DNA from: Lytechinus pictus
Lineage: Eukaryota
Direction: 5' to 3'
Length of the DNA: 64,000 nucleotides
Assembly (NCBI RefSeq): GCF_037042905.1
Contig: NC_087247.1
Span: 63,187,097 to 63,251,096, forward strand
A model generated the notes under the pieces. It did no database searches. It was given only the letters and a program-made list of their open reading frames with translations, and was not told the origin of the DNA. Every line of letters begins with the position of its first letter. The first letter of the stretch is position 1. This document shows positions 2,890 to 60,546 of the stretch, in pieces. Both the position numbers and the translations under genes were made by a program.

Positions 2890-3440
<551 letters not shown>

Positions 3441-4811: not shown

Positions 4812-4868
4812 AAAAAAACTTGGGTGGTGAGAGGATGCATTGCCCATACAGGGAATACATCCTCTCAC
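4812..4868. repeat. Near-perfect palindrome (ggtgagaggatgcatt...atacatcctctcacc) flanked by A8 and T7
   Basis: The two halves are reverse complements and form a ~20-bp stem hairpin. A MITE-like or foldback remnant is possible. Confidence 0.6.
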
Positions 4869-5522: not shown

Positions 5523-5723
5523 ACGCACATATATCGCCCGACGATGAAACTTAAACTGGCTTTACGAGTTTTCTTGGACAATCATGTTGTGCATCTTTGA
5601 AAGGAAGTGGCTCCCCCCGAACGTATTATCGCCCGACGATGAAACTTAAACCGGCTTTACGAGTTTTCTTGGACAATCATGTTGTGCATCTTTGAAAGGA
5701 AGTGGCTCCCCCCGAACGTATTA
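5523..5723 (+). repeat. Direct tandem duplication, 2 x ~104 bp (tatcgcccgacgatgaaacttaaac...ccccccgaacgtat)
   Basis: The two copies differ at only 1-2 positions, so the duplication is recent. Confidence 0.95.
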
Positions 5724-8624: not shown

Positions 8625-8765
8625 TAAAATACTAATAATGATAATCATAATGATGATGATAATAACAGCAATAATGGTAATAATAATACTAATTACTACT
8701 ATTGCTATTATTATCCTTATTATTATTATTATTCGCACATAATAGTAATAATAAACATAATAATA
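8625..8765. repeat. AT-rich minisatellite (ATAATA / ATTATT variants)
   Basis: Direct reading. ORF 8592-8813 is an artefact of this repeat. Confidence 0.85.
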
Positions 8766-11520: not shown

Positions 11521-11640
11521 GAACACACCCACTTCTCTCTCTCTCACACACACACATACATACACACCCACATAGAGTATACCTCCAACACACCCCCTCT
11601 CTCTGACACACACATATACACTCTCACAGAGTATATGCCT
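11521..11640. repeat. (CA)n / CACACA-rich imperfect microsatellite
   Basis: ctctctctcacacacacacatacatacacaccc...ctgacacacacatatacactctcac. Confidence 0.8.
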
Positions 11641-14396: not shown

Positions 14397-14399
<3 letters not shown>

Positions 14400-14445
<46 letters not shown>

Positions 14446-14453
14446 ACATGAAA
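14400..14453. repeat. (TA)n microsatellite, ~26 units
   Basis: Direct reading. Confidence 0.95.
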
Positions 14454-14753
14454 AATCCTTAATTTGGATTTATAATAATAGCAATAGAAACAAGAACAAT
14501 AATGATATTAATGATAATAATAACGTAATATTTTACCCAGGGTAGCCACTTCGATAAAGTTATTTGGCTTTCTGAAAGAAATTACGTACAAACTATAAAT
14601 TTGCAGTATTTTAAAACTACTAATATCCAAACATTCCAATATCTATAATGAAAAGGGTTGGTTTAAGAAGATTTGGTAAAATATTAAATGTTAAAATATT
14701 CTTGTAAATTGATATCGAAATGTTTGATAAACCATTCCTATCATTGTTTTAAG

Positions 14754-14926
14754 GAAAAGAGATGGTGGATTATGTGGCTGATTACTTATCAACAATTCGT
14801 TCCCGCCGAACATTACCAGACGTCCAACCTGGATACCTTAAACACCTCATACCAGACCATGCCCCTATACATGGGGATAAGTGGGAAGATATCATGGCTG
14901 ATATTGAAAGGGCCATCATGCCAGGG
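14754..14926 (+). CDS. HDC: Histidine decarboxylase-like (PLP-dependent group II decarboxylase) coding exon: (G/R)KEMVDYVADYLSTIRSRRTLPDVQPGYLKHLIPDHAPIHGDKWEDIMADIERAIMPG
   Basis: Near-identity to the conserved N-terminal block of HDC/DDC (RG+EMVDY..YL..+R.V.PDVQPGYL...P..AP...D....I..D+E..IMPG). The acceptor ttttaag sits at 14752-53 with an in-frame TAA just upstream, and the donor gtaagt is at 14927. The exon starts in phase 1, so at least one more 5-prime exon carrying the first base (and probably the start codon) must lie upstream and was not found. Confidence 0.85.
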
Positions 14927-16929: not shown

Positions 16930-17043
16930 ATTACTCACTGGCAGAGCCCTCATATGCATGCATACTTCCCTGCACTCACATCATATCCGTCAATGCTTGG
17001 AGACATGTTGGCTGATGGTATCAGCTGCTTAGGGTTTACATGG
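16930..17043 (+). CDS. HDC: HDC exon: [38 protein letters not shown]
   Basis: Matches the HDC-specific block [37 protein letters not shown]; the DDC version differs (SPYFFAYFPTASSYPAML). Acceptor ttcatgcag, donor gtaaga. The 114-bp length is in phase with the previous exon. Confidence 0.9.
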
Positions 17044-18646: not shown

Positions 18647-18698
18647 GCATCTAGTCCCGCGTGTACCGAGCTGGAAAAAATCGTGATGGACTGGCTGG
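18647..18698 (+). CDS. HDC: HDC exon: ASSPACTELEKIVMDWLG(split codon)
   Basis: Matches ASSPACTELE..VMDWL. Acceptor cttgtag, donor gtaagt. The exon ends in phase 1. Confidence 0.9.
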
Positions 18699-21600: not shown

Positions 21601-22992
21601 GTTTTTCATTAGATCCACAAAAAACAACAACAATAGTTCCACTAGCGACTGGTATTTGGCCAAGTATATTGTTATAACAACATGCTTATGCATTCAAAGT
21701 AGAAATGCAATAAATACCTTCATAGAGAGTTTATTGGTGTGCTATTCGATTTCTTCATCCTGCTATGTAAGACATGCTTACATAATATCTTGCTTTAAGT
21801 CTGCCTATCATCATGATAAAAATGAAAGGTAATTTGACCAAATATGCCCGTGAAGTAACGACGAAATGGTATATTACAGAATGCATTTCATCTATTTTGG
21901 TGACAAGTTTTATTTGTGTGTAACTCAGTGAATATGTTAATATTCGATAAGATATCTAAAAAAAAACACAATGAAGCACACACAACAAAGAGAATCCCAT
22001 TTTCTTTATTCCTGAGTATGGGTGTGTGTGTGCGCGTATGTGGGTTTGTATTTGTATGAGTGGTTTGGATAATGAGGAGAATTCTTGATATGCATAAATC
22101 AAGCACTTGTGAAATAAAAATATGATAGTCGGCTCGATATGCTGCCTCAGGGAGAAAATTTAGCAACTTTCATTACCACACTTATCTCTTGATTTTAATT
22201 TTATATTTCGAAAAGAAGTCTTTCATCACCGTTCAGTAAAGATCAAATGATTCTCATATTTCCATTTAGATGCCCAAATATAACTCCTAGGGAGGTTGAA
22301 TCATTTTTACCCGCAAACAAATTAACAAATTTGCCCTTTCTACTCGTTCCGCTGAGATCGTTTAAGTGAGGCTCCATGCGGAAAGATAATATAGATCAAA
22401 CGACGTGGTTGTGAAGACAGCTTACGAATATATACACTTTGACACAATTCAGAAAACTAGATATGTTTGATAATATCATTGACCCGGCGTTGCTCAATAT
22501 CACACGGCATTGTTTTCACTATACGAGGAATGCAATTTTTCAAATTCATAATATTTAATGTTTTCTTATGAATCTTGTGAGGAAGAATACTTTTGAAGAT
22601 ACAGACCCTTGGCGAATTTGTCCGGGAGGTACTCTTTCCTTTGTAGTCGTTAATTTGATATCGATTTACGGCTGAGGAACAATTTCCGTCAATAAATAAA
22701 GCATACTCCTATTTTTGGAGAGAGCGCAGCTGAAACTGGGCAGGTCCCGCTAGGAATAGGGTCGGCAAGATAATGGGTGAAACGTGGCCATTAAATGAGA
22801 AAGAAGGATTCGGCTGTTCTTAAATATAAACATTGCTCTCAATGGTTCTCCTCTCTTCTTATTTCACTTCTGAATGGAATCAAATATTATCAATGACATG
22901 AAGGTCTATATTAATTTATTTCCAAAGACTTTACAATGAATAAACCATCCGTATTCAAACATTTGAATTTTTATTTAAAAAGTTTATAGAAA

Positions 22993-23937
22993 TCGAGGCA
23001 CTAACCCTTAAAAAGGCTGGGGATTCCACCCCTCGAATTTTTTTTCGTAATAAACACGGAAAGCTGGTGCCGCGCGTCGTTCCTTGACTTGCTTTTTTCT
23101 TTCAAGTCTCGCGCAAATTTTGAGACCGAATTTGCGACCCTCGCGTTCTGACGTTACCCAACATCTATAGTAAGTCTATGTCAGACCAGAAATTGCACAA
23201 AAAATGTGATTCCATGTACAAATCCAAACTGTGTTTCTAAAATTTCTAAAAGTATCATTATTTTTACTATAAACTTATTGGCCCGGTGGTTTTGAAAACT
23301 GTCCTCTGAATCCACGGTTTATGCAGATTTCCTGTTAAATTACGCTTATTTACCGCTCTTCAAAACAGTGGACTCATGAATGAAATAGCGTACTTAACCA
23401 TGGCAACGGGCGTCATTTTGGCGCACTGTGACAAAAGCGCGCATCAGCGTTGGACATTTCTTTATACGCGGTAAACAGGAAATCTGCATAAACCATTGGT
23501 TCAACCGACGGTTTTCAAAACTACCTTTGTGAATTCGGGCCATTAATTTTGTTTTGTTCATGATCAAAATAAAGTCACTGACAATATCCATGAAAAAAAA
23601 CCCAGAAAAGTCGAAAACAAGGAAATACAGAAGAAAAAAAAAAATGAGTAGAAAATGTGCTACAAATATATATTTTTTGAAGTGCATTATATTTGATCAA
23701 AATGTTACAGTCTGTGAATAGAAAATAATCAGTTCGTGGCACATATCTATATAATTAGACATTTCTTTATTTTACGCATAATAAAATATTAAATATTATT
23801 TCGGAAAAATAACATCGTACACTAGCACTGTGCATATTTCCGTGGCGCTCGCGTGATCGGCGGCCGAGATTTCAGAGGGTGGGTACCCGCCGGTATAGCA
23901 TAGCCAAAAAGACCCAGCCTGAATAGGGTTAAAGAAG
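22993..23937. mobile_element. Non-autonomous TIR element (MITE-like, ~945 bp) with ~20-bp terminal inverted repeats (ttaacccttaaaaaggctggg / cccagcctgaatagggttaa) and an internal long inverted repeat (23281-23337 vs 23470-23540)
   Basis: The terminal and internal inverted repeats were read directly. No transposase ORF is present; ORF 23394-23687 is low complexity. Confidence 0.55.
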
Positions 23938-25269
23938 TATTTTAAATTATAGAAATGGCGGCTCTATACTGTATAACATCTAACATCTATGACATGTTCA
24001 AAAGCATTATTCATTTATTTTTTTATCACTACTTATCTTTGATTTAAAATAGTTTGGTGAAATAACACACTGACACATGTGTACATTTTCTCAAATAAAA
24101 TATCATAATAAGTATATACTTTTTTTCTTATTTGAATTTAGATTTTAGTTAAGTTAAAAGTTGTTTAAAATTTGTAAATATTTCCCTTAGATTGGAAGAG
24201 GCGAACTGACAATCCTGAATGATTCAGACAATCGGAGATTCCCCCCTCCCCTTTAATCTTATAAGTAATAAACAAAAATGAACGAAAAGAATGATATAAA
24301 ATTTTGCTGAGTATCTTATGAACGCCTCACTCATGAGTAGGTTACTCAGTATTAGGTAATATGGATTGGGTAAAACTCGATGATATCAAATAGAATTTAA
24401 CATTTTCTGCAATCTTTCCCGGAAGCATGCTAATTACACATTTTTATTCCAAGGATCAAATAAATACACAACCTTTGTAGAATGTAAAAAGGTTTTTAAT
24501 TTTGTAATGTTTGACGATGAATCATAAATTTATGACATTTCAATGATTATAACAAATATGTATCGTTGGAAAATTCCGTGCATACATTCGCAATTCAATT
24601 ATTTCCTTTAAAGGGCTTTCCCGTCGGCTTTCTGCGGGTAATTTCAGTATACACCTATGAGATTATCAATTCATCGACCTAGGATATGCCTGCTAAAACG
24701 ACACTTTTTATTGATCAAATTAATCACCCGTCATAACTGATCGTAATGAATGGCGAACTGCTACAATAGGAGTAATTCTGCAAAGGTTATGAAATTTCAA
24801 TGGTTGCAGGCAAAGTAAGATATTATTTACAACCTTACCGATTGCGGTTGTCAAGTCGAATCTCTGTTGATTCGTAAATCTTTTTTGCGCGGAAATTTCG
24901 TATTAAATGTGATTAGGGGAACGAGATTATAATTTTCTGTTAATTGCGTTGTATTAGTAGTAGTATGGTAGTTATTCAATCAAGAAACTGGCAAAACAGT
25001 CCAAAGACTGAAAATTCAGTGTACAGTATAAACAAAGGCAAAGTACAATATCATAAAGATGAAATATATGCAGAAAATTACAACCAATCGATTATGATAT
25101 TACACAATCATAAAAAGATATACCAGGAAAAAAAATAATTTAAAAAGTAACATGTTGATCGATGAAGCATGTACAAACGTCAAGAAGTGTGAATGTGTAA
25201 TTCGAACAGAACACAACTCGGGCATTAAATGCTATATTACATGTATAACCATGAAATACGGGAAAATTC

Positions 25270-26110
25270 AACATAAATAAAGAAAAGAAAAAGAAGAGAG
25301 GGAGTGATAGAGAGAGAGAGGAAACCAAGATTACGGGAAACAGTAAATATATGTATAAAAAAAGCAAATGAGAAAGGAAGAGAAAGAAAGAGAGAGAGCA
25401 TGAGATGAATGAGGAAGAGTAGAAAAACGCAAGAGAGTGGGAGGAAAGAGATAGAAAGGAAAGAAAAGATAAAGGAGGGGAAGATGAAAGGAAAAAATTG
25501 AAAAGAAGACCAACAGCAAGAGGAGAATAAGAAAAACAGGAGGAAAGTATGGACGCAAAGCTGGGTTTAACCTTGTAAAAAAATAGCAGTAACTGATAAA
25601 AATTTTCCAAGAATATAAATCAACGAAGAGAATAAAAAGGTGAGATGCGTGGTCGATGAGATAATAGCAAAAAAGATAGGCATTGGCACGAATTGTCGGC
25701 TTCCAATTCCAAACCACATTATTGTGTATAGTTCTACCCAATCAGTCCTTATCTACCCACGTTCCAATCACGTTAATATTACAACCTTCATTTTTTATGT
25801 TACGTATTAATGTTTTATCAGAAGATAATGTACCATGTTTCGAAAAGGACTTGAAAATCATCACTGTGACGTAAAACATTAAATTTACTTTGCACCGTTA
25901 AAAGGGAGAGGCATAGAGCAGTGGATTCCACTTATAGCTCATTTCCCACTAATAATGATTCTTTCCTATATTGGAAGATACATTCAGGACAGATTGAAAA
26001 GGGGAGAGGAATGAGGGGACAAGAGAGTCAGAAAGATAGATAGAAGAGAGAGAGAGAGAGAGAGAGAAGGGGGATCGAGGGGTTGGCGAGCAGAGATGGA
26101 GAGGGAGTCT
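25270..26110. repeat. Purine-rich (GA/GAAA/GAGA) low-complexity blocks (25270-25560 and 25990-26110)
   Basis: The minus-strand ORFs 25140-25610, 25331-25741 and 25949-26194 translate to S/L/F-rich low-complexity peptides. They are repeat artefacts. Confidence 0.85.
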
Positions 26111-26164
26111 CGGACAGAAACATAAATATACTCTTAAATAGTTGGCCAAAAATACCCAACTTTT

Positions 26165-26350
26165 AACCAACCCTTGACAACATACTGTCCACACAACTAT
26201 TGGTTAAAATCTGCCCAAGTTGGGTAATAAAAACTAATAATTGGGTAATTAATTCGCTGATTTGGATAATAATTGCCCAGAATATATTTATATTTTTATA
26301 CCAACATGTATTATCCAACACAGTGGACAGTATGTTGCCAAACATTTTAG
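26165..26350. mobile_element. Small MITE (~185 bp) with ~25-bp TIRs (gacaacatactgtccacacaactattgg ... ccaacacagtggacagtatgttgccaa)
   Basis: The terminal reverse complements were read directly. The interior is AT-rich and non-coding. Confidence 0.7.
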
Positions 26351-27295
26351 GTGTATAGAGGACAAACACACACCATGGGTACGGAGAAGAGAAATGATGA
26401 ACAGAAAATAATGATAGAAATGAAAAAGCAAAGATGACAAAACGGACAGAAAAAAAATCGAACACTGACAATTTCATTGAAAGCTACATATATTAGGATC
26501 AAGAACTAAATTGCATCCACATGGAGACCTATCGTATTATGCGTAGACTTGTTTGCTTTCAATTATTGTATGGAGGTCTGGACCTTAATTGAAACGTCTA
26601 AACTGAGAAAAGATGAACGTAACAAAAAGTCGATATGATATATCTAAGTATTTCATCCATATACTTTAGAAATGTGAACTAGCTGGGAAATTTGTGATTC
26701 ATAATTCATATCATCTGGGGATTATGACTAAACGGTGCTAAAGAAAATTGAATAGTTGTTCGAAATATTTGTTCACTTAGTGTTGTAAACTATTGTAAAG
26801 TGAACTTTGATATACAAAAAATTGTGACATAACAATGATACCTTTAGAAAAAAATAATTTCATTATACATACATACAGACAAACATACATCAACCCTCTC
26901 TCACATAATACACAGCCAAACGCAATTAAATAATAATACACAGCCAAACGCAATTAAAATAATTAAAATAGTACTGACCTTCGCAGTACAGAATGTATTA
27001 GCTAGTACGTCAAAATCCTATTAAATAATATTTTAATGAAACAAATCTATGAGTTATATCTCATTCATTCATAAATTATTAGGAAAATGACATCATTCTG
27101 AAAAAGGCTCATTGGGAGATAATCCATAGTATTTTCCCTCAGTGGCAGATGGAACTATGATAATTGTATGGAAATTAATAAAATGACCCTCTTGAGAATT
27201 ATATACTAGTGTATTTATTTCTTTTTTTGTTTCTTTTTTTTTATACAAAAATGTACTTTAATATACGGTCACAGACATTTGGAATTTTATAACAT

Positions 27296-27657
27296 GTAAT
27301 AATAATAATAATCCGCTTTTAAATAGCACTTAATACATCGAAACGACGTGTCTAAGCGCTTTACAGATATATTATTACCCCGGTCCTCGGATTCAATCAG
27401 TCATTCCCGCACGCAATATGTGCACATCCTCCACTCCCTGGGGAGTATTCCAGTCAGTCGCCGATGAGGCGCACACAGTACTGGACAAGCTACAATGACT
27501 TTCACATCCTACCGGGTACCCATTTAGCACCTAGGTCGAGAGTGGCAAAATGTGGATTAACGTCTTGCCAAAGGACGCCAGACCGCGGTGGGATTCGAAC
27601 ACACGACCCTCTGTTTACAAGGCGAGAGTCTGAACCACTACACCAAGGCTACTCCAC
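27296..27657 (-). mobile_element. tRNA-derived SINE (~360 bp) with an (ATT)n tail at its 3-prime end (low-coordinate side)
   Basis: The reverse complement of 27581-27657 reads GGAGTAGCCTTGGTGTAGTGGTTCAGACTCTCGCCTTGTAAACAGAGGGTCGTGTGTTCGAATCCCACCGCGGTC, which has a tRNA-like acceptor, box A (TGGTGTAGTGG) and box B (GGTTCGAATCC). The body is tRNA-unrelated and ends in aataataataat (27296-27310 on the plus strand). Confidence 0.8.
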
Positions 27658-28349
27658 TTAACATGTGTATTCTCTATGATCATAACGGCTTTCAAAAAGA
27701 TTAAAACTAAATCGATAACTTGGAATTGTCTCGTAAAAATGCGATTATGTTTGGTATCATCACCCTTTCCGTTACATTTTTAATACTAAAAAAATACTAA
27801 TTACTTGCTTACATTGCACTTAGTGATTCTTTATCAGAAGAAAACAAGTAGGAAACTGCTGGTCTAAAACTGTTTCCTTACTCCATGACATGGTCAGATG
27901 ACGGTAACTCACTACTACCGAAATGTTAAGGAGAGAAATAACATTTAAGGGTACATAATTATTCAAATATCACATGTGAGGTTCGTTATTACCCCCCTTG
28001 TCATGCTTGTTGCGGATGTAAGGACCTACAGTGTTCAAATTTCACAAAATCTTCGTCATCAGTGAAGTGTAACAGGCGACTGACAGTACTCTTGATATAG
28101 AGATGGGTATAGAGAGGCAGGATGGTGGTTAAAAATTGACCGAAAGACTGAGGTTCTTTTTAGAAGAGATCGCGCTGTACAGTATAAACATGTGTAAGTC
28201 TAACTAAGTAAGAAATCTGCACCCATCATTTCATCCTTGAGATTTTTCCTGTAAGGAGACTATTTTCCAAGGAGGTTTTTTTTTTTTTTTTTTTTTTGGG
28301 GGGGGGGGCACATATATATAGACACATGTAGTATAGTCTTGATCATATT

Positions 28350-28990
28350 AGTTTTTGTCTCGCCTGCATATCAGAGCGAGACTATAGGCGCCGCTTTTCC
28401 GACGGCGGCGGCGTCAACATCAAAGTTTTTGAAATGACATCATAACTTAGAAAGTATATGGATCTAGTTTATAAAACTTGGACATAAGAGTAATCAAGTA
28501 TCACTGAACATCCTGTACGAGTTTAAGGTCACATGACCATGGTCAAAGGTCATTAAAGGTCAATGAACTTTGGCCGTGTTGGGGGTATTTGTAGAATTAC
28601 CATCCTAACTCTGAAAGTTTATGGATCTTGTTCATAAAACTTGATATATAAGAGTAATCAAGTATCACTGAACATCCCCTGTGAGTTTCAGGTCACAAAA
28701 CAAAGGTCAAAGGTCAATTAAGGTCAATAAACTTAGGCCATGTTGGGGTAATTGTTGAATTGCCATCATAACTTTGAAAGTTTATGGATAGAGTGAATGA
28801 AATATGGACATGGGTGTAGTTGACAAGTCTTAAGTCACCGTTCAAATGTCATTTATGGTCAATGAATATGGTATTATGTCATTATATGAATGGTGTTTTT
28901 GTGAATGATTATTTTATAGTAGTTTTCAAAGTTAGCACTGCTGCTATATTAAATCGTGTAATGCAGGCGAGACTGCCAGAGGCGTTCCAC
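28350..28990 (+). mobile_element. TIR-bounded element (head ttgtctcgcctgcat, tail atgcaggcgagac) carrying an internal tandem array (~2.3 x ~165-bp unit, 28440-28810); copy 1 of a family
   Basis: The head at 28352-28368 and the tail at 28962-28976 are reverse complements. The unit tcactgaacatcct...ggtcaaaggtcattaaaggtcaatgaactttggccatgttggggg is repeated. A T32G11 homopolymer junction sits immediately 5-prime (28276-28318). Confidence 0.6.
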
Positions 28991-30219
28991 TTGTTGAAAA
29001 TAGATATTGTCATTGTAAACAGGAAAATGTTTGTTAATAATTTGTATCAGTTATGAAATATCTAAAATGAAATATATAAAAAACGAACCGTTTTTCGTTT
29101 TTTTCTACTGAGATATTATTTTCCTATATTTTCTCTGCATAATGGGAATTTAACAAGCGTTTATACTTCTTCTATTTGTATTTGTTGTTGAAAATTAAAC
29201 ACGCATTTGCAATTAATTTTTGTAGTTTTTGCTTTGACAAGCCTATTCCTATTTGTTTTTTATGTTTTTTTTTTTTTCATTTTTCGCTTTGACAAAACAG
29301 AAAACTGAAGACTACCCTCTACGTCTATTTTTTAAAGCGAGCTGAGGGCAGCTGTAATCCGGGTAGGCAAAAAAGCAGAAACATAAGAGAAAAAGTAATT
29401 AGGACAATGTTTAAATGTAAATCGTTTAAAATATCACAGTGCTAGTACAGTGAAGCTGGTGAAACTGATTTTTCTGTCGATTTGAAATTGTTATTTTCAT
29501 CTACAGTGAATATTCATTGTCCTTCCAATAGCAGACTATTAAAAACGACAGTAACTTGTTGATGCTGTTGATATATTGACTTGTCTATGAACCAAGATAA
29601 AACAAAATCTTTTTCAGTAGATTTAAAATTTTGATTTTGATTTTTTTTCTCTTCATATTGTCCCTCGAATGTGGTTTGATCCGTAACAAGTTGATGGAAC
29701 AGAAAAACAGCGTTGCATGGTTTAATTGAATTTTTAATTGAATTGAATGTACGGGTATCGGGTATGATGGCTTATCTGTGAATTGATGTCAATAAAATTT
29801 ATCGAAACTTGGTAGTTAGTGGTGCGGATGTATCCTTTATGTTTGGCTTAGCCTATGAAAGAAGAAGAAGACAAAAAAGAGAAAGAAAAGAAGAAGAAGG
29901 AGAAAAAGAAAAAAGAAAAGAAGAAGAAGGAGAAAAAGAAAAAAGAAAAAGAAGGGGCTGTGGATCCGCCCATAGGCGGAGTTTGAATTTTCTTTTTTTT
30001 GTAATGAAAGAGGCACGCAGATCTCATTTAGGGGGCTAGAACTTTTTTAAAAGTGTTCTGCAAAATGTCAGTTTTATGGTGTGGCATCATTTATTAAGTG
30101 CGATCCATATCCACTTCAGAATTTTCCTACACAGTGCTTGAAATAGTGCATGAGATCACCTTTTTTCAGATCGGAATATCAAATACTTTTAGCTCGGGCT
30201 TCGCGCTCGCATTATTGTA

Positions 30220-30292
30220 GGGCCCTGGGAACGATTTTTTGACTGGGGGTGCTGATGATAATTTGACAAGCCCCCCCCCCCCCACTAATGCT
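30220..30292 (+). mobile_element. Short SINE-like or terminal repeat module gggccctgggaacgattttttgactgggggtgctgatgataatttgacaagc + C13. Paralogous copies at 34432-34500 (+A16) and 45392-45455 (G14 internal), with related tails at 36330-36480.
   Basis: Three ~60-bp near-identical copies each end in tttgacaagc plus a homopolymer. Two of the copies lie next to reverse-orientation units of the tgcgagcgcgaagcgcgagc satellite (30165-30215 and 34625-34700). Confidence 0.55.
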
Positions 30293-30849
30293 GTAAACAC
30301 TTGACAACGATCATTATTAAAGGGGTACTCCGGGCTGAAAATAGTAAAAAAATATTTGTATAAATATAAATAAAGTAAAAAATAAGATTGCACTGAGCAA
30401 AATGAAGTGTCATGACAAATGGCATAATCTGATAATAACAAAGTTATTGAACATTTTAATACAGCATTATTAAAACAATTATACATACGCCGTCATGATT
30501 GATTGATTGATTTCATTCGTCAAAACTATCACAGGTAATATGAGATACAATGAATTTGAAGAATACCTTGTCAATATATCACATGAAAGTCGAAAGGCTA
30601 ATTTCCAATGGTGTCCTATTGATTGTATAAAACATTAATATATTGTAACGACAAAATGTATAAACTACTACAAGTACTGGAACATGGCAAAAAAGACATA
30701 CCCACCAATCAAATAATTTGCAAAAACCTGAAGCAAACAATAATCTACCTAATATATGAAACAAGATTATATTATACCCTACATTATCTACAATACTATA
30801 GAAACCAACTTATAGAATGTGTGATTTTTACTGGTAATACTGTTCTCGA

Positions 30850-32335
30850 GTAGATTCCAGTCTTAGGTGCTTCTTTAATGCACTCTTAAAACAGCCTTTA
30901 CTTGATTAGGAAGATCATTCCAAAATTAGATGCCATTAAAATAAATAGTGTTCCCTATACGACCTTCACGTTTTGGTAATACAAAATTAAAATTACTATT
31001 TCTAAAATCGTACCTATAGATATTTGATACACGGGTGAAATTATTTGCTATGTAATGATCTAACGTATCCGAATAGAATATCTTATGCACGTGGTGTAAT
31101 ACTAGTTGTTCAGATCTTTGATCTACATGGAGCAATCCAGCCATTTCAAGTTAATTGTATCCGACAAGTGCTCCTGGGCCTAAAACATTAATGAATCTTA
31201 CAATCTCATTTTGAATTATTCTTAGCTTTTTCTTATCCGTCACACCCAGACTATACCGTACCAAGCCGCATTAGCATAGTTGAATAGACATTGTATTAAA
31301 GCAAAGCATAAAATACGTCTAGACTTCATGTTCAAACAGGTTTGATATCTATACAAAAGTTTTAAGCGTGAGTGTGCCTCTTTGGCGATTGAGTCTACCA
31401 ACCCCGTCAATGATATGTCACTTATTTAATTAATTCCCAAATATTTTACTGAATATTTTCTGTCAATTACCTGATTATTATATGAAACCTTGAAATCGTG
31501 TGTATATCTTAAGTTTCGTTTCAAACAAAATAAAATGCTTTCCGTTTTCCCCAACATGTAAACTAAGCTTGTTGTCAGACATCCATTCGATGCAATATGC
31601 CAAATCTGCACTAAGTATTTTATCAATTATCTTTGGATTTGTATCTGAATATAGCAAGACACTAGCATCAGCGTATAAAATTAATTTAGATTCATTAATA
31701 CAAGTATACATATCATTGATGTAAGACATAAAAAGAATGGGGCCTAAAATGCTTCCTTGAGGGACTCCGCATTTAATAAGCAGTGAATCAGAAAGAACCA
31801 TCTCCATGGTAACAACTTGATGAAGATTAGATAAATATGATCCACACCATGTGACACATAAAGAGTCTAAACCCATCACTTCTAATTTCTTTAAAAGTAC
31901 GTTATGATTTACATTAACAAAGGCTTTATGTAAGTCTATGGGAACCATTCCAACCATGCGCCCATGTGAAATTTCATTCCTGATAAAATCTGTTAAATGT
32001 ATTAAACAAGTTTTAATGGAAAATCCGTTACGAAAGCCGGACTGGAATTTGTATATTAGCTTACTTTCTTGAAAGTTTTTCTCCAATTGAGCATAAACAG
32101 ATATTTCCAAAATTTTCGACACTACACTTAATACACTTATAGGCCTATAATTACCAACGTCAGTTTTATCTTTCTTTTTATGTAGCGGGGTAACTTTTGA
32201 AAATGTCATATCATCAGGAAAGGTAGAAGACATAAGAGGTAATTTAACTATATAAGTCAAGTCAGGTTTGTACATATTTCTTGCCCCATCTTTTAAAAAT
32301 ATTGCAGGTATCATATCAAGAACAGTACTTTTTTG
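30850..32335 (-). mobile_element. Degenerate non-LTR retrotransposon (LINE, CR1/L2/jockey-like) ORF2 reverse-transcriptase region. It is 5-prime truncated at 32335 and frameshifted downstream.
   Basis: Minus-strand ORF 31478-32314 carries the RT motifs NYRPISVLSVVSKILE, QSGFRNG.S, PIDLHKAFVNVNH (motif A), GVPQGSILGPILFMSYIND (motif B) and LYADASVL (motif C). Motif C is YADD->YADA, so the second catalytic Asp is lost. Downstream frames carry KYLGI (31426-31626) and further ORF2 tail (30926-31144). A (TGAT)n tract at 30495-30515 may mark the 3-prime end. Confidence 0.8.
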
Positions 32336-33437
32336 ATATTTTCAACATGACCAAGTTCAAAGGTCATTTAGGGTCAATGAACTTTGGCCATGTTAGGGGT
32401 ATCTGTTGAATTACTATCACAACTTTGAAAGTTTATTTGTCTAGTTCATAAAACTTGGATATAAGAGTAATCAAGTATCACTGAACATCCTGTGCGAATT
32501 TCAGGTCACATAATCAAGATCAAAGGTCAGTTAACTTTGGCCATGTTGGGGGTATATGTTGAATTGCCATCATAAATTTGAAAGTTTATGGGTCTGATTC
32601 ATGAAACTTGGTCATAAGAGTAATCAAGTATCACTGAACATCCTGTGCAAGTTGCAGGTCACATGATTAAGGTAAAAGGTCATTTAAGGTCAATGAACTT
32701 TGGCCATGTTGGGGGTATTTGTTGAATTACCATCATAACTTTGAAAGTTTATTTGTCTAGTTCATAAAACTTGGATATAAGAGTAATCAAGTATCACTGA
32801 ACATCCTGTGCGAATTTCAGGTCACATAATCAAGATCAAAGGTCAGTTAACTTTGGCCATGTTGGGGGTATATGTTGAATTGCCATCATAAATTTGAAAG
32901 TTTATGGGTCTGATTCATGAAACTTGGTCATAAGAGTAATCAAGTATCACTGAACATCCTGTGCAAGTTGCAGGTCACATGACCAAGGTCAGTAGACTTT
33001 GGCCTTGTTGGGGGTATTTGTTGAATAACCATCATAACTCTAAAAATGCATTGATCTAGTTAATAATACTTGAACATAAAAGTAATCAAGTATCATTAAA
33101 CATCTCATGCGAGTTTCAGATCACATGACTAAAGTCAAAGGTCATTTAAGGTAATTGAACTTTGGCCAATTTGGAGGTAATTATTAGATTGCTGTCATAA
33201 CTTTCAAAGTTTATAGATATAATATAGTTTATAAAATGTGGATTTAGGGGTAATCAAGTATCACTGACAAGTCTGAGGTCGCATGATCAAGGCCATATGT
33301 CATGTATTTTCAATGAACGTAGAATTGTATCATTATATGAATGGTGTTTTTGGGAATAATTACTTTATAGTACTTTTCACGGTCAGCACTGCTGCTATAT
33401 TGAATCGCAAAATGCAGGTGAGACTGCTAGAGGCGCT

Positions 33438-33474
<37 letters not shown>

Positions 33475-33481
33475 GACGGTT
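32336..33481 (+). repeat. Copy 2 of the TIR/tandem-array family: ~6 x ~165-bp tandem units (32340-33300), then the conserved tail (33340-33440) ending in a T41 homopolymer (33441-33481)
   Basis: Same unit and tail (cagcactgctgctatattgaatcgc..atgcaggtgagactgc) as 28350-28990. The array abuts the truncated LINE RT. Confidence 0.75.
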
Positions 33482-35709
33482 CCGAAATAGTTGAGTCGGA
33501 AATGGGTTTCCGGTGTATTATTGCAGAAAAAAATTAATCTTTACAAAAATATATTATACAATGGTCAAGTGAATGAATTTGTAAGTTATCATTGCAGATG
33601 ACCATTCTAAATTTGCAATAATGACGGCCATCTTTAATTTTTCATGGAAAAAAACAACTTTTTATCAATGACACAAGCGTGCCTGTGACAAGAGATTAGC
33701 TCATCTCTTGTCACAGGCACACTATATACCGAATTGCTTCTTCGACTTTACTTGTTGGAATATCATCTATGCCTTGCTCTACCATGTCTACTGCAATAAC
33801 TTAATCGCAGTTCTCAATCAAGGGAAAACTGAACAGTACAATGATTCTTTTCTTTGATTGTAAACTCAGACACCAATAATGTTATAATATTTCGCTATGA
33901 ACGTTTGAATTTTTGATGCATTGCGCTGTTGATATTTATAAAAAGTGAATTTAATTGAATTGGTTTCACAATGATCTAGGACTTTGTTTACAACCACTTT
34001 CTGTTCTTTAGATTTGGAGTGTTGACAAAAATGAGCATACGGCCACAACAAGAAATATTTGTTTGTGTGCTCTTTAAAAAAAACTGTAATGTTAAAAATA
34101 CACCGCCGGTGTTTAAAGAGGGCAATCACACCAATCATTGTACACTAATCGTGTCCCGCAAAAAATATCACTCGCACTTTAGTCGAGTATACATGTAATG
34201 TGAAAATGAATAAATCATATTGTACATATTTTTTGTATTCGTAAATTGCTTTTTTTTATACAACTGGCTTGCATTTCATGCGATATGTTTCATTAAATAC
34301 GGAGCTTTGAGCCTTCTTTATTTCTTTATTGCATTGAATAGAATACGCAGTCCAATCACGTCTTTATTCTGCAACTCTTTCTGCAACAGGCCCCTGCTGG
34401 ATCAGGGGGAAAAATACATGGAGGTTGGCTAGGGCCCTAGGAACGATATTTTAACTGGGGGTGCTGATGTAAATTTGACAAGCAAAAAAAAAAAAAAAAT
34501 GCAGGGGGCATTTCGTGTTACATTTATCACGTTCTCACACCTAATAGAATTGCAGGGGTGCTTTTCTAAAAAAATGTATCTTTATTGACATACGCAGTTT
34601 GTTCTTCATTTAAAACGTTCTTTAATTATCCAGTTTCAGATCGAAATATCAACAATTTTCTGCTCGCGCTTCGCGTTCACATTATCAATGTAGGAAGATA
34701 CCCAATTACTCATCCTTTTCCTGATTTACAAAACACACACATTATATATATATATATATATATATATTGGAAAATTCAATTGTGTCTCCCCCACCTTTGA
34801 GGAGAGATTTCCGTCAATGCAGTCAACTCACCGCATTTCCCAAAATTATAAACAGGCATATTTCTCTCATTTTTTTCTCCTCACGTTCCTGTTCTACCCT
34901 GTTTTCTTCTTCTTCTTCACTTATTTCTCTCGCCGGGCGTGATTATAGCATCGTTTTCCATAAGGTGGATAGAGCTACAACTCGCTCTTTCCAGCCCTCC
35001 CCCCAAAAAAAGTACTCCACAAGGTCCAAAGGTCAAGCACGCACAAAGTTACACTTTTTTGTCTATTGTGTAATAACAAAAATTAACAACAAAAACAAAC
35101 TGAAGAAGTCTAAAAGATTATTAGGTTTCTGTTATGCAGATTAAAATAATAAAAACACATTTTTAGAGAACAGTAAAACGAAAAATAAAAAACTTTTTGG
35201 TTTTTTTCTTCAAATGGTTACATAATGATCGTTGTTTTTTCTGTGTAAAGTCTCAAAATCATAATCAGTTTTCACACAATATTTTGTTTTTGCTTTTTCT
35301 GTTTAAAAATCAGAAAATGAATTATCTGAGAGTACCTTGATTCAAACATTACATTCTGTGTAAGGAAGCAGGAACTGAGTAGTTTGTAAGGGCTCGAACT
35401 GGTGGTGTACTTTTTGTAGTCTGATTGCGACATATTGCCATTAATATATCTTATTTAGTAAAATTCATAAAGTTTGCATCATGTGGTTAAAAACATGCAG
35501 TTTTTTTGTGTATTTGTTTTAATATCTTTATCATTGTACTGTTTCATTATGCAGCTGATTTGATTGGTCTTCCAAGTATTTTCACCCACCGTGACACAAC
35601 AAGCACTGGAGGTGGCGTGCTCCAGGTAGGACAAACACGATTTCAATAACTAGGATTGTAAATGTTTGCAATACCAGGATGGTGTTTCGTAAAGCTGTTC
35701 ATAAAGTTA

Positions 35710-40674: not shown

Positions 40675-40815
40675 GGCACCATGAGTGAGGCCACTTTAGT
40701 ATCCATGTTCGCTGCTCGACGAGATGCTATAATCCGACTTCAGGAGAAACCAGAATACCAAGGCATGGAGGAAGCGACGATATGTTCCAAGCTAGTTGCT
40801 TACTGTTCAGATCAG
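40675..40815 (+). CDS. HDC: HDC exon: GTMSEATLVSMFAARRDAIIRLQEKPEYQGMEEATICSKLVAYCSDQ
   Basis: Matches HDC STVSESTLIALLAARKNKI....LVAYASDQ. Acceptor tctttcag, donor gtatta. 141 bp, phase 0. Confidence 0.9.
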
Positions 40816-41728: not shown

Positions 41729-41872
41729 GCTCACTCTTCCTTAGAAAAGAATGCAGTGATAGCCATGGTGAAACTCAGACATGTGCCCTCAGATAAGAAG
41801 CTTAGCCTACGAGGAGAAGCGCTTCGTGCTGCCATTGAACAAGACAGAAATAGAGGACTGGTCCCTTTCTAT
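41729..41872 (+). CDS. HDC: HDC exon: AHSSLEKNAVIAMVKLRHVPSDKKLSLRGEALRAAIEQDRNRGLVPFY
   Basis: Matches [48 protein letters not shown]. Acceptor ttctcag, donor gtaagt. 144 bp. Confidence 0.9.
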
Positions 41873-42525: not shown

Positions 42526-42592
42526 GTATGCGCCACCTTAGGAACTACTGGGGCTTGTGCATTCGACAATCTTGCTGAATTGGGTGAAATAT
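42526..42592 (+). CDS. HDC: HDC exon: [22 protein letters not shown](C split)
   Basis: Matches [23 protein letters not shown]. Acceptor cttcatag, donor gtgagt. 67 bp, ends in phase 1. Confidence 0.9.
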
Positions 42593-42778: not shown

Positions 42779-42941
42779 GTGAAAGGGACAACTTATGGTT
42801 GCATGTAGACGCGGCCTACGCCGGTACAGCATTCTTGTGTCCGGAATTCCGGGGCCATCTCCACGGGGTAGAAAAGGTTCAGTCATTTGCTTTCAACCCG
42901 AGTAAATGGCTGATGGTTCATTTTGACTGCACTGCTATGTG
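42779..42941 (+). CDS. HDC: HDC exon with the PLP-lysine motif: (C)[53 protein letters not shown](W split)
   Basis: Matches [50 protein letters not shown], which contains the catalytic PLP-binding Lys (NPSKW). Acceptor cttaccag, donor gtgagt. 163 bp (2+159+2). Confidence 0.92.
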
Positions 42942-43104: not shown

Positions 43105-43195
43105 GATACGAGACAGTAAAACACTGGAGAAGGCATTCTGCGTAAAGCCACTATACCTCCGCCATGATAAGCAGGGATCGGCCGTCGATTTTATG
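43105..43195 (+). CDS. HDC: HDC exon: (W)IRDSKTLEKAFCVKPLYLRHDKQGSAVDFM
   Basis: Matches [30 protein letters not shown]. Acceptor tttactgcag preceded by T12, donor gtaatt. 91 bp (1+90). Confidence 0.88.
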
Positions 43196-43574: not shown

Positions 43575-43673
43575 CATTGGCAAATCCCACTGAGTCGACG
43601 CTTCCGCTCCCTGAAGCTCTGGTTTGTTCTACGCTCGTTTGGTGTAAAGAAACTTCAGGAGCATGTCCGTAGG
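43575..43673 (+). CDS. HDC: HDC exon: [33 protein letters not shown]
   Basis: Matches [33 protein letters not shown] almost exactly. Acceptor aatgtgcag, donor gtaagt. 99 bp. Confidence 0.92.
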
Positions 43674-45264: not shown

Positions 45265-45366
45265 GGTGTTCGACTAGGTCGCTACTTTGAGGAACTAGTT
45301 TCAAACGATGCTGCATTCGAAATTCCAGCCGAGAGAAAACTTGGTTTGATTGTCTTTAGACTGAAG
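45265..45366 (+). CDS. HDC: HDC exon: GVRLGRYFEELVSNDAAFEIPAERKLGLIVFRLK
   Basis: Matches [35 protein letters not shown]. Acceptor aattatacag, donor gtaact. 102 bp. Confidence 0.88.
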
Positions 45367-45907: not shown

Positions 45908-46345
45908 GGACCAAATGAACTCACTCAAGAGCTTTTGAGACGCCTCAATTACTCCGGCAAGATCTATGTTGTACCTGCCTCCATTAAGGGTCTTTACGTC
46001 ATCCGATTCACTGTGACGTCAACAGAGACCACTGAAGATGACATTTTGGAGGATTGGCGTCTCATCCAGTCACTTGCACGTGAAATTTTCGTCTCGACAG
46101 ACATCGTGGCCAACGTCCCCACAAGGATGGCATCATGGCCTGGTGCCCTCAATCTTACCGGTGCACCAAGTGCCATCCACGTCCTTAAGAACCGGAAAGA
46201 AAACTATGGTGAAAACAACAACGAAGATAAGAGAGAAGATGAGAATGAAAGCCTTGCAAAGAAAATAGAAGAAATGAATGGGGAAGAAAGGGAGAATGTG
46301 CCACTCATCTACAAACCAGGCAAGCTTGGAGCTGTGCTTGCATGA
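45908..46345 (+). CDS. HDC: HDC 3-prime coding exon: GPNELTQELLRRLNYSGKIYVVPASIKGLYVIRFTVTSTETTEDDILEDWRLIQSLAREIF...ENVPLIYKPGKLGAVLA*
   Basis: Matches [53 protein letters not shown]. Acceptor ctcttaaacag. The open frame runs to TGA at 46343-46345. An internal potential donor G|gtgaaa at 46208/46209 is discussed in the findings. Confidence 0.85.
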   Translation, partial: GPNELTQELLRRLNYSGKIYVVPASIKGLYVIRFTVTSTETTEDDILEDWRLIQSLAREIFVSTDIVANVPTRMASWPGALNLTGAPSAIHVLKNRKENYGENNNEDKREDENESLAKKIEEMNGEERENVPLIYKPGKLGAVLA

Positions 46346-47224
46346 TAGTTGCTGTACACGTGAGATCCCGCCCGCATGGCATTTTCCTTATTTAGTTTGC
46401 CATAGAACCGTTCAATTTTTTTTTATATTCTAGCTTATAATTTATGTTCAGTCAAGTTTTACCATCTCAAAATTAATGTACCGTGGTAAAGAATAGCTAA
46501 TACTCTTACTTTCTACCCTTTAGTTTCCCCTCGCTTTATCTCTGCGTATTTCCATCTGATTATAGTCATACTTTAGCGTGCTGTATTAGCCTATAGTAAT
46601 AATGAAAAAAATATCCTAATCATGAATGTATTCCTCTCCCAAATTGCCATTTGCTTACATATGACTTGCCATTTTTGGACATTAGTCTTATTATGGTATG
46701 TTTTAAGTTAAAGTATTTGTATAGATTTCACTTATGATTTATACATAAAAACAAATGTTGGATATTTAAGGGAGTATAGCTTTTATGCTAACAATTAATT
46801 CTTAATTAAATTGCGTTTACTTTGATACTGTTATTGCTGTTGTGTTTATTATTATGACACCTTTCTTTTTATTTTAATACTTACGGCACCAAGGTACATT
46901 ACATATACTACTATAATCACAAACATTTGAATAGTAATCCAAATGTTCATTTCTAATTCAGAGTCTCTTTGTCTTTAAGAGCCCTCATCTACCACATTGT
47001 ACCCTAAACGTCCTTCGAAATATATTTGGCTTTCAACATTGTTTGAAGACACCGTGTAAAGTTGATTTAATCCTCCACCATTCAATCACTTCTAAATCAT
47101 AATTACATCAAAAATGCTTAAATAAGTATGCACTGGCAAAATACAGATCTTGGGAAACATTTTTTTAAGTTATCATAATAGGTAATTCATTATTTTGTTG
47201 ATTCTTTTTAATCAACGTATACAG

Positions 47225-47871
47225 GACGAGAAAGAAAGACATGTCTTAAAAAGCTGATGAACTACCGTAAAAAGATGGGTCGTCGTGCGATGTCAGAAGA
47301 AGCTGAGGGCTACGGCTATCCTTTCAATGCATTCTACAGCTTCGAGGATACTTCCAGCGGTCTACCCTCGCCATGCGAAGACCTTGATGACCAGGAGTTT
47401 GTTGGAGAGGATGAAGTGTTTGGGAGCAATGGTCATATCGAGAATGGGCACTCCAACGCTGACGTGCTTGAGCAGCTAGGTGGCGATGATGATGATGATG
47501 ACAACGAAACAGCCACACCTATGGACAGTCCCAAGGCAGACGATGATAACGCGAGCTTCCCGCCGACACCGAAGCACGAGGTCGCATCTGACGATGGCAT
47601 TACTCAACTCAATACCACACCAAGTACCAACATCACCAAACTGGATTTCACGGCCAATGGGCAAGCACAACCAATCATCATGGGCACAGAGAAACCTGCT
47701 GATGTTGGGGTCGCCAGCAAGGGTAGGTTTGGTGCTCTCAGCCAGACTAAAGAAAGCACCTACAATGGAGTGGTGAATATTTGCCACTATCGCTCCACCA
47801 AAGGCTCCTCAAACGGCTCCACCGAAAGAAACGAGGAGGAGCAGAATACCGAGTTGTGCGACCAAGAATAA
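47225..47871 (+). CDS. Candidate additional HDC 3-prime-terminal coding exon encoding an acidic/Ser-Thr-rich tail (…MSEEAEGYGYPFNAFYSFEDTSSGLPSPCEDLDDQEFVGEDE…GGDDDDDDNETATPMDSPKADDDNASFPPTPKHE…ELCDQE*). Alternatively it is an unrelated ORF.
   Basis: This is a 215-codon open frame (47212-47871) in AT-rich DNA with exon-like codon composition, on the same strand as HDC. The acceptor cgtatacag (47223-24) leaves 2 bases that complete a Gly codon with the phase-1 donor at 46208/09. AATAAA follows 122 nt after the stop. Confidence 0.45.
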
Positions 47872-47992
47872 TTCCTTGCCGATATAAATTCATATAGTAC
47901 TAGAATCAAGTGTCATGTGTGTTCAATAACTATCGTAATTACTGTTTGAACAAGAAATTAAAATGTATATTAACTTTTCTGTCTATATCATG

Positions 47993-47998
47993 AATAAA
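47993..47998 (+). promoter_or_regulatory. AATAAA polyadenylation signal downstream of the 47225-47871 ORF
   Basis: catgaataaatgtagg. No canonical AATAAA is seen in the ~900 bp following the 46345 stop. Confidence 0.4.
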
Positions 47999-59520: not shown

Positions 59521-59677
59521 AGAAAATTGTCTGATATTTGTAAAAGATGAATATTCTTATGAAATATGTGCTTAATTTTTTTTATCATCAGAAGTATCAT
59601 CTGTATGTGTAATGAAATGTTTTAAAATTACCTCGAAACAATGACCTATCAACCATATGGTTTGTTTGATTTTACAG

Positions 59678-59964
59678 GATCATTTCAAAAGATGCATGGT
59701 GATGAGGCAGCAATATCACAGTCATCAATGTGTCGAATCATCAAAGATGTGTCAGAAGCTATAGCAAGAAGGAAAAGGCAATACATGAAGTTTCCTTCGA
59801 CAAGAGAAGAAGTTGAAGCAACTCAGCGACAGTTCTTCCAGTACTGCAGATTTCCAGGAGTGATAGGTGCAATTGATGGGACACATGTCTACATCAGGAG
59901 CCCTGGTGGGGATCAGGCAATATACTTCCTCAACAGGAAGAATAGATACTCGATCAATGTTCAG
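59678..59964 (+). CDS. HARBI1-like exon 2: (G)SFQKMHGDEAAISQSSMCRIIKDVSEAIARRKRQYMKFPSTREEVEATQRQFFQYCRFPGVIGAIDGTHVYIRSPGGDQAIYFLNRKNRYSINVQ
   Basis: Matches Harbinger DDE-domain block 1: GSFQ...GD..GISQ.S.SR.I..V..AL.......I.FP........K..F......P.V.GAIDGTHI.I..P......Y.NRK...S.NVQ. The first catalytic D is in AIDGTH. Acceptor ttttacag, donor gttaga. 287 bp (2+285). Confidence 0.8.
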
Positions 59965-60546
59965 GTTAGATTAATTATACCCTTTCTTAGGCCCTTTTCA
60001 CAATTAGTGCTGAGACTGCTTGCAACCTTTGTGATTGTGTGCGACATATATTGTGATCAAATGATTGCAATTGCTAATACAAGCAAATGTGAAAGCCACT
60101 TAAATTACTATAACTAGAACAATGTACTATTTTGTATAAAGTTTGGCAAAAAAAAAGAATGTGACATTAATTTTCTTTCCTAGGATTTCCTATCACTTCA
60201 GTTTCATTTATAGTAATTATTCGATTCGTATTTGATTGGGCAATTTTTAAAATGAGTAGTTAATTCTGTAGCATATATATATTTTTTTTGTGCAAGTACT
60301 GAGCAATTGAAGCAGTGGAAGGGTGGGGTGATTGTTGGATAAATCAACCTAACATGGAAAGCACACCAATAATTTTTATGTGCATGCATGTTAAAATTGC
60401 ATTCCAAATATGTGATAAACTTGCAAAACTCAATTGTTGTGTGCTCCCATTGGATGTCCCAAAGAAAATTGAAAATTAAGTGCCCAGAACAATATAGAGA
60501 CAGTTATGAATGTAAGATTTGATATTCCTCTTTTGTCTTCTGCTAG

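Follow-up and report, generated by a model that had tools for sequence, protein, structure and literature searches.

The 64,000-nucleotide stretch of Lytechinus pictus DNA analyzed here (the window) carries, on its forward strand, a histidine decarboxylase-like (HDC) gene with a complete annotated CDS of 13 coding exons at 14762-47874. The exon model, built against an echinoid HDC mRNA-like contig, places exons 1-5 at 14762-14926, 16930-17043, 18647-18698, 35555-35625 and 40675-40815, exons 6-10 at 41729-41872, 42526-42592, 42779-42941, 43105-43195 and 43575-43673, and exons 11-13 at 45265-45366, 45908-46319 and 47225-47874, the last including the stop codon. Residues 23-403 of the translation match the Pfam Pyridoxal_deC family (PF00282) with E = 4.7e-157 over profile positions 1-375 of 375. 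Among the best 120 protein matches, the named ones are mostly histidine decarboxylases from many phyla, and some are labelled aromatic-L-amino-acid decarboxylase(-like). The PLP-binding lysine lies in an S-K context in HDC and an H-K context in DDC; in the window protein the sequence is NPSKW. Judged by domain, homologues and lysine context, the gene is an animal histidine decarboxylase, a member of the group II PLP-dependent decarboxylases.

The gene model, including the terminal tail exon, is already known and annotated in RefSeq. Translation of the 13 exons reproduces 755 of the 755 residues of XP_063952115.1, which shows no difference from the window throughout the C-terminal part, with the whole tail and the 46319/47225 junction included. 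The model in which 45908-46319 is joined to 47225-47874 also yields the last 644 residues of a second L. pictus record, XP_054749749.1. The N-terminus of that record differs, is read out of the intron preceding 35555, and is probably spurious. XP_063952115.1 itself starts 11 residues later than its orthologues, whose N-terminus is MDVEEYRRRGKE; a search upstream of 14753 for MDVEEYRRR, representing the absent first coding exon, gave nothing convincing.

The penultimate coding exon (45908-46319) begins after the acceptor aaacag/GGA and encodes the end of the catalytic domain (YVIRFTVTS...ASWP) and an echinoid-specific acidic insert that ends ...IYKP-G. Its frame stays open to a TGA at 46343-46345, immediately next to which is a TAG. 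The terminal exon (47225-47874) starts after the acceptor tatacag/GA in a frame that is open from 47212, and comprises 215 tail codons (47227-47871) and the stop TAA at 47872-47874. The 905-nt intron between the two exons (46320-47224) is of the GC-AG kind, with the donor CCAG/GCAAGC and the acceptor ttctttttaatcaacgtatacag/GA, both in phase 1, and the codon that it splits is G/GA (Gly), giving the product ...IYKPG/RERKTCL.... Removal of this intron leaves a continuous frame identical to XP_063952115.1, and the RefSeq proteins are reproduced exactly only with the 46319/47225 junction, across which XP_063952115.1 and XP_054749749.1 read ...ENYGENNNEDKREDENESLAKKIEEMNGEERENVPLIYKPGRERKTCL... in residue-for-residue agreement with the window. 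U2-type GC-AG introns have GC at +1/+2 and fit the consensus at the remaining donor positions, the consensus for the GC donor being MAG/GCAAGT. The HDC intron, CCAG/GCAAGC ... ttgttgattctttttaatcaacgtatacag/GA, with its AG acceptor after a pyrimidine-rich tract, does not differ from them in kind. An enrichment of GC donors among genes with alternative splicing has been reported (PMC2490688).

The GC donor and the junction are kept in Lytechinus, Strongylocentrotus, Diadema and the echinoid contigs L002 and L004. The donor CAG/GCAAGCT is invariant (8/8 echinoid sequences), the acceptor AG followed by G[ATG] is kept in seven genomic sequences, the split codon in those lineages always encodes Gly (GGA, GGT or GGG), and donor and acceptor agree in phase 1 in all lineages examined. 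The KPG/RERK junction is also found in RefSeq models of L. variegatus, S. purpuratus (XP_789367.3 and XP_011661032.1), and Diadema setosum and D. antillarum (two models). RefSeq models and conservation together suggest in vivo use of the 46319/47225 junction by L. pictus.

The tail bears the motifs RRAMSEE...YGYPFNAFYS and EDEVF and the terminal motif SKGRFGALSQTKESTYNGVVNICH; a Pfam search of the tail returned no domain. A similarity between the tail peptide and the C-termini of HDCs, raised in a preliminary description of this DNA, was borne out for echinoderm HDC tails: the ORF has homologues at E-values down to 1e-92, the best match being 77-78% identical, and four of the eight matches carry it fused to an HDC C-terminal domain. 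The terminal motif S-x-G-R-[FM]-G ... Y-x-G-V-V-N-[IT]-x-H, which in the window tail lies C-terminal to the catalytic domain, is common to echinoid, asteroid, ophiuroid, holothurian and crinoid HDCs, and ten of its columns are invariant in the five-class alignment. The holothurian (L009) and asteroid (L003, L005) genomic contigs each have an uninterrupted last exon that runs from the catalytic domain into a tail ending in this same motif. The intron 46320-47224 is thus lineage-specific, being present in echinoids and absent at the same position in the holothurian and asteroid contigs, and by this comparison the terminal motif is older than the intron. The acidic ORF is the C-terminus of HDC and not a separate gene.

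All the sequence features listed in the preliminary description, namely the exon end, a GT, the acceptor, the ORF and an AATAAA hexamer, are present where it placed them, and the tail ORF is the only one that rises far above chance. The signal-level features, GT and AATAAA, are not above chance. The hexamer, a possible poly(A) signal, lies at 47993-47998, about 120 nt after the stop codon; A[AT]TAAA occurs 370 times in the window, compared with 351 +/- 18 expected from shuffles, and the copy at 47993 is not significant on its own. Another candidate poly(A) site lies at 47957, and an ATTAAA at 46805 would be a possible site within the intron.

The favored reading, to which we assign a probability of about 0.9, is that the acidic 215-codon ORF is the terminal HDC coding exon, spliced via the U2-type GC-AG intron 46320-47224. 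On this reading the product is the 755-aa RefSeq protein, in which the PLP-decarboxylase core is followed by the echinoid-specific acidic insert and a long acidic tail, mostly disordered-looking, that ends in the motif kept across echinoderms.

A different account would take the TGA at 46343-46345 as the functional stop of the main L. pictus mRNA, leaving the tail exon as 3'UTR only and the long protein as a homology-carried annotation artefact. This is compatible with the short form of HDC recorded for S. purpuratus (XP_030828545.1), with L002, in which a short ORF is present and the tail exon lies downstream of its stop, and with the conservation of eight codons and a stop within the intron. 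It is nevertheless very improbable, as the tail exhibits constraint at the protein level, unlike a UTR: it is 93% identical in amino acids to the strongylocentrotid tail, whereas third positions match in only 68% of the identical codons. Moreover, all echinoids examined have a tail frame open over 215-249 codons, the GC donor and the acceptor agree in phase 1 in all lineages, and the terminal motif predates the intron.

The preliminary description had proposed that the ORF extends the HDC C-terminus, a proposal that stands on RefSeq identity, conserved splice signals and tail homology, but it had placed the donor at the phase-1 site G/GTGAAA (46209-46214), the use of which is unsupported. The annotated and conserved donor is the GC at 46319/46320, likewise in phase 1 and 111 bases downstream; it was missed because only GT donors were considered, and a GT-only scan chose an in-phase donor that was there by chance while the correct model stood in RefSeq. 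Constitutive or alternative splicing from the GT at 46209-46210 to 47225 would delete the 37-codon insert ENNNEDK...LIYKP that splicing from the GC donor retains, and joining 46208 to 47225 does give ...KENYG-RERKTCLKK.... The site has the correct phase and a GTGA core and, because three of the 11 bona fide GT donors of HDC also have no G at +5, its sequence alone does not disqualify it. Its use is hardly credible all the same. The GT is missing in L. variegatus, where GGT has become GTT and the phase is changed (TAT GTT GAA; TATGTTGAA), in strongylocentrotids (TAC ATC GAA or TAC ATC GTA; TACATCGAA) and in L002 (ATA), and it is only one of four phase-1 GTs (46143, 46161, 46170 and 46209) among the final 245 exon bases. 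All seven RefSeq echinoid long models retain the codons that follow this GT. No annotated echinoid long model lacks the acidic insert, whose protein sequence is conserved between Lytechinus and Strongylocentrotus (ENNNEDK...ESLAKK...KPG).

The preliminary description also offered a separate small gene or an unrelated exon. That the ORF belongs in this way to some other transcription unit, starting at ATG 47257, has a negligible probability: ORF callers do report a stand-alone 204-aa ORF and similar stand-alone ORFs are present in the protein collection, yet the ten codons ahead of the ATG are conserved, with mostly synonymous interspecies differences (5/5 between L. pictus and L004) and a conserved acceptor directly ahead of them, in Diadema the ATG is replaced by CTA or CTC, the asteroid, ophiuroid, holothurian and crinoid HDCs share the terminal motif, and the asteroid and holothurian genomic contigs hold that motif in one continuous ORF with the catalytic domain.

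The frame continues past the GC donor. This continuation (46320-46345; (G)GC AAG CTT GGA GCT GTG CTT GCA TGA) gives ...KPGKLGAVLA and a stop, a candidate C-terminus of a tail-less short isoform, and the TGA at 46343-46345 may also be used. The codon position of the stop is shared by Lytechinus, strongylocentrotids, Diadema, L002 and L004, and the peptide that precedes it in these lineages is K-L-x-A-V-[LV]-A, with three wobble positions that vary. Among the records recovered, only the long form is found for L. pictus and both forms for S. purpuratus, the orthologues being XP_789367.3 (759 aa), with the KPG/RERK junction, and XP_030828545.1 (562 aa), which ends KPGKLEAVLA at the stop inside the intron. 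A full-length cDNA has been cloned with XP_789367 as the starting point (PMC3460732, Additional file 1). Two alternative C-termini, as suggested in the preliminary description, are plausible.

The intron opens with a strongly conserved block (46320-46389). Within it lie the GC donor, the eight codons and stop, two GCATG motifs (at 46340 and 46374) and a second donor-like site. Its 70 bases are 90% identical between L. pictus and a strongylocentrotid (0.91 and 0.89 in two 35-nt windows), compared with about 0.45 for the remaining intron and 0.62-0.68 for synonymous third positions of the flanking exons. Across five lineages the mean identity is 0.75 over intron positions +8 to +27, against 0.47 over the final 27 bases of the exon and 0.26 over +28 to +54. 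The second site, CAC/GTGAGA (46360-46365; CAT/GTGAGA in the strongylocentrotid), is a candidate alternative GT donor. It lies 40 nt further downstream than the GC donor and 14 nt beyond the TGA, and its use would yield a short protein with the tail exon as 3'UTR. A single mRNA-like echinoid contig, L002, was recovered; in it the GC donor is read through, 34 nt separate the short ORF from the tail exon, and the join ...TTTGTAAAC/GAAGAGAGCGG lines up with ...GCTGTACAC/GTGAGA of L. pictus at 46360. Retention of a short intron, or deletion of an intron, was also considered for the 60-nt insert of L002, but the alignment agrees better with putative use of the downstream donor.

XP_030828545.1 and L002 count against the long form being the sole product. 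The long form may not be the sole HDC product, and perhaps not even the major one, because the former stops inside the intron and the latter reads through the GC donor.

These features raise the possibility, somewhat less likely than not, that two donors 40 nt apart compete for one acceptor and so switch the HDC tail on and off. The GC donor at 46320 would give the tailed 755-aa enzyme, and the GT donor at 46360, or plain intron retention, would give an enzyme of about 560 aa that ends in K-L-x-A-V-[LV]-A, with the tail exon as 3'UTR. Since its stop would lie only 14 nt before the junction, the short-form mRNA should escape nonsense-mediated decay. GCAUG is an Rbfox-type element, and the two such motifs in the conserved 70-nt block suggest cell-type-specific control. 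The switch, if real, would have arisen together with the echinoid-specific intron gained inside the ancestral last exon.

Other mechanisms were considered and rejected. The HDC ORF and the tail of L002 share a frame, with one TGA followed by C between them, a match most simply ascribed to chance; stop-codon readthrough or selenocysteine insertion as a general mechanism is opposed by the tandem TGA TAG and by the out-of-phase downstream GT donor in L. pictus, L. variegatus and strongylocentrotids. An RNA hairpin masking the GC donor (GCAAGC...GCTTGC in L. pictus) was discarded, as the consensus fold is weak (-4.8 kcal/mol) and has no compensatory pair change. A protein search with the unspliced exon gave 18 candidates, none of which scored, and metagenome scans with a donor-block DNA pattern and the tail motif found no echinoid DNA.

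The ~20 kDa C-terminal region of the mammalian 74 kDa HDC directs ER translocation, and its removal from the unstable 74 kDa form yields the 53-55 kDa enzyme (PMC6359378). In both mammalian and L. pictus HDC the PLP-decarboxylase core leads into a long C-terminal extension dispensable for catalysis, but the tail motifs GVVN[IT], [YF]G[YF]PFN, RRA.SE[ED] and [DE]D[DE]VF are absent from all vertebrate HDCs in the match set. By analogy with the mammalian C-terminal region, the tail may have a regulatory or targeting role. Loss of the tail proceeds by proteolysis in the mammalian enzyme and, if at all, by splice-site choice in the sea urchin one; the switch, if true, would parallel, at the level of splicing, the proteolytic maturation from 74 to 53 kDa.

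Overall, the structure of the gene is ordinary, a tail-less alternative form is hinted at, and there is little here to surprise a specialist. The gene model is known, and any isoform switch is an inference. Histamine modulates the metamorphic competence of sea urchin larvae (PMC3460732), and the forms of HDC matter for work on metamorphosis because of this effect and because HDC is the only histamine-synthesising enzyme. If both forms are made, antibodies, morpholinos, in situ probes and CRISPR edits directed at the tail exon would detect or affect just one. For studies of intron gain, the locus also offers a neat example of an echinoid-specific intron that entered a coding exon and has a conserved GC donor.

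All features that the preliminary description listed at the 3' end of the histidine decarboxylase (HDC) gene are present in the sequence. On the + strand, an HDC-type exon starts at 45908 after the acceptor aaacag/GGA, reads GPNELTQELLRRLN...YVIRFTVTS...ASWP... and reaches an in-frame TGA at 46343-46345, with TAG directly after it. The GT proposed as donor (46209-46210) is in phase 1, and the acidic tail ORF extends for 215 codons from the acceptor tatacag/GA (47224/47225) to a TAA at 47872-47874, with an AATAAA hexamer at 47993. The GT and AATAAA signals are by themselves unremarkable, since the final 245 nt of the HDC exon contain four phase-1 GTs and A[AT]TAAA occurs at chance level (370 in the 65% A+T window vs 351 ± 18 expected).

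Assignment of the tail ORF to HDC was borne out by homologous echinoderm ORFs that fuse the tail to the HDC domain. A protein search with the C-terminus spliced as originally proposed gave eight matches, four of them stand-alone tail ORFs on echinoid contigs (56-78% identical). The other four carry the HDC C-terminal domain (LYVVPA..YVIRFTVTS) continuing unbroken into a tail that ends ...KPADxSVASxGRFGALSxxKESTYNGVVNICH, the motif of the window tail. With the whole reconstructed protein as query, the top match was 'histidine decarboxylase-like [Lytechinus pictus]', and Diadema, an echinoid contig and further echinoderm HDCs came next among the top matches. Pfam matched the Pyridoxal_deC core of the protein and found no domain in the tail. 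RRAxSE[ED] is found in echinoids, holothurians and the ophiuroid, [YF]G[YF]PFN in echinoids and holothurians, and [DE]D[DE]VF is common across echinoderm tails; the terminal S-x-GR[FM]G...Y-x-GVVN-x-x-H is invariant across all five echinoderm classes. The tail motif may be ambulacrarian, reaching beyond echinoderms, because hemichordate HDC tails (P0022, P0023, P0032) contain (GYCG)VLK[IL]CQHVN, similar to the echinoderm Y-x-GVVNICH. The L. pictus tail (47836-47874) is ~10-13 codons longer, ending ...NTELCDQE before the stop, than the strongylocentrotid tail (contig L001, 722-765), whose stop precedes homologous TTCTGCGACCAACAG sequence, which indicates a recent shift of the stop position.

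A separate gene beginning at the first ATG of the tail ORF was rejected because the ten codons from the acceptor to that ATG (RERKTCLKKL) are conserved as protein, with mostly synonymous DNA differences (AGA/AGG, ACA/ACT, CTT/TTG, AAA/AAG and CTG/CTC between L. pictus and the echinoid contig L004), because CTA or CTC replaces the 'start' ATG in both Diadema species, and because L. pictus and strongylocentrotid proteins are 93% identical over the first 80 tail codons, with just 68% of third positions matching in identical codons.

Sequence comparison points to a GC at 46320 as the true donor. At the junction, the RefSeq proteins of L. pictus have ...HVLKNRKENYGENNNEDKREDENESLAKKIEEMNGEERENVPLIYKPG/RERKTCLKKLMNYRKK..., which requires a donor at 46319/46320, where CCAG/GCAAGC provides a phase-1 GC donor; joined to the acceptor at 47225, it gives GGA as the split codon. 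The translated 13-exon model with this junction, built on an mRNA-like echinoid HDC contig, matches XP_063952115.1 at 755/755 residues and XP_054749749.1 over its final 644 residues. The KPG/RERK junction likewise occurs in models of L. variegatus, S. purpuratus, D. setosum and D. antillarum. CAG/GCAAGCT is invariant in 8/8 echinoid sequences (the window, L. variegatus, two strongylocentrotid contigs, two Diadema species, L004 and the mRNA-like contig L002), and each of the seven genomic sequences keeps the acceptor AG with G[A/T/G] after it. The gene model is present in RefSeq and the finding as stated is therefore already known. With its GC donor and AG acceptor, the intron (46320-47224) belongs to the well-known minority class of GC-AG introns. 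GC donors are reportedly enriched among alternatively spliced genes (PMC2490688).

The donor first proposed, at 46208/46209, was wrong. In L. variegatus, 99% identical in this exon, TAT GTT GAA vs TAT GGT GAA in L. pictus shifts the GT out of phase; strongylocentrotids (TAC ATC GAA or GTA) and L002 (TAT ATA GAG) have no GT there, and the 37 codons that its use would delete are kept in all annotated long models.

The HDC last exon opens at the same acceptor (Q/G...LTEELL) in genomic contigs of a holothurian (L009) and asteroids (L003, L005), where it continues unbroken from the catalytic domain to the tail stop (837-1619, 827-1636 and 6061-6906, respectively). Thus, the intron splits what was ancestrally one terminal exon. 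It occurs in echinoids from Diadema to Lytechinus, is positioned directly after an echinoid-specific acidic insert, and appears echinoid-specific on present sampling; gain in the echinoid stem would be the parsimonious reading from these few taxa.

The first 70 intron bases (46320-46389) are more conserved than synonymous sites in the flanking exons: L. pictus and strongylocentrotid sequences are 89-91% identical in this block, vs 62-68% at synonymous third positions in the exons on either side and about 45% over the remaining intron. When independent lineages are compared pairwise, identity averages 0.47 in the final 27 exon bases and 1.00, 0.75 and 0.26 at intron positions +1 to +7, +8 to +27 and +28 to +54. 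Read in frame, the block gives GGC AAG CT[T/G] nnn GC[T/C] GTG [C/G]T[T/A] GCA TGA, or G-K-L-x-A-V-[L/V]-A-stop, with the stop at the identical codon in every lineage; the TGA at 46343-46345 may be functional. A second donor-like site follows on the + strand at 46359/46360 (CAC/GTGAGA; CAT/GTGAGA in the strongylocentrotid), and the only two GCATG pentamers in the 905-nt intron, at 46340 and 46374, are both inside the block. A consensus fold of the block did not support a conserved RNA structure. Two ORF calls (P0139, P0141) in the strongylocentrotid exon (L010/L011 133-594) end ...AVLAW, an end rejected as biology since the caller's genetic code read TGA as Trp ahead of TAG.

Two C-termini, as the preliminary description envisaged, are plausible, with the GT at 46209 discarded as their cause. 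The 562-aa S. purpuratus RefSeq protein XP_030828545.1, which ends ...PPIFKPGKLEAVLA and is accompanied in RefSeq by a 759-aa long form, and the 3.4-kb contig L002 (run SRR6173504) both fit a tail-less isoform. L002 contains a fully spliced 573-codon HDC ORF ending KPGKLVAVLA-TGA, and its tail exon starts 34 nt after the TGA at the orthologous GA AGA GAG CGG; the join ...TTTGTAAAC/GAAGAG aligns with L. pictus ...GCTGTACAC/GTGAGA. The simplest reading, which we infer for L. pictus with a probability of roughly 0.35, is that two alternative donors, separated by 40 nt, share one acceptor. The GC donor at 46320 would produce the tailed enzyme, and the GT donor at 46360 a short enzyme whose stop, 14 nt ahead of the junction, would be too near for nonsense-mediated decay by the usual 50-nt rule. 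Plain intron retention would yield the identical short protein. What merits attention is this conserved block with its two donors, together with the possibility of a regulated isoform without the tail. In L002 (Logan contig, 2173-2232), 60 nt lie between the KPG codon and the RERK exon. Tail and HDC ORF share a reading frame, interrupted by a single TGA (then C), and the tail has an internal duplication of an ...ANGQAQ... segment.

Mammalian HDC, like echinoderm HDC, has a long C-terminal region; this ~20 kDa region directs ER translocation, and its removal gives the 53-55 kDa enzyme (PMC6359378). No motifs common to this region and the echinoderm tail were found, so the likeness is offered as a functional analogy and homology is not claimed. 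In sea urchins, HDC and histamine are important for competence to metamorphose, and XP_789367 was the basis for cloning a full-length HDC cDNA of S. purpuratus (PMC3460732).

The RefSeq L. pictus model begins at the ATG at 14762. Because orthologues start 11 residues earlier (MDVEEYRRRGKE) and an acceptor, ttttaag/GA, is located just ahead of GKEMVDY (14753-14762), this model probably lacks a short first coding exon, which was sought in 1-14752 and not found. XP_054749749.1 is without the first three coding exons, and its N-terminus (MQAPAGSGGKIHGVFLCICFNIFIIVLFHYAA), partly read from the intron (35459-35554) just 5' of exon 35555-35625, probably arose as an annotation artefact in an older assembly. 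A 158-aa ORF on the + strand (59641-60117, containing ...GAIDGTHVYIRSP...) had no Pfam match at E <= 0.01 and is reminiscent of Harbinger/PIF-type DDE transposases. The third HDC intron (18699-35554, 16.9 kb) contains, on the - strand, a 278-aa reverse-transcriptase ORF (31478-32314; Pfam RVT_1, E = 1.2e-25) that is a retrotransposon fragment.
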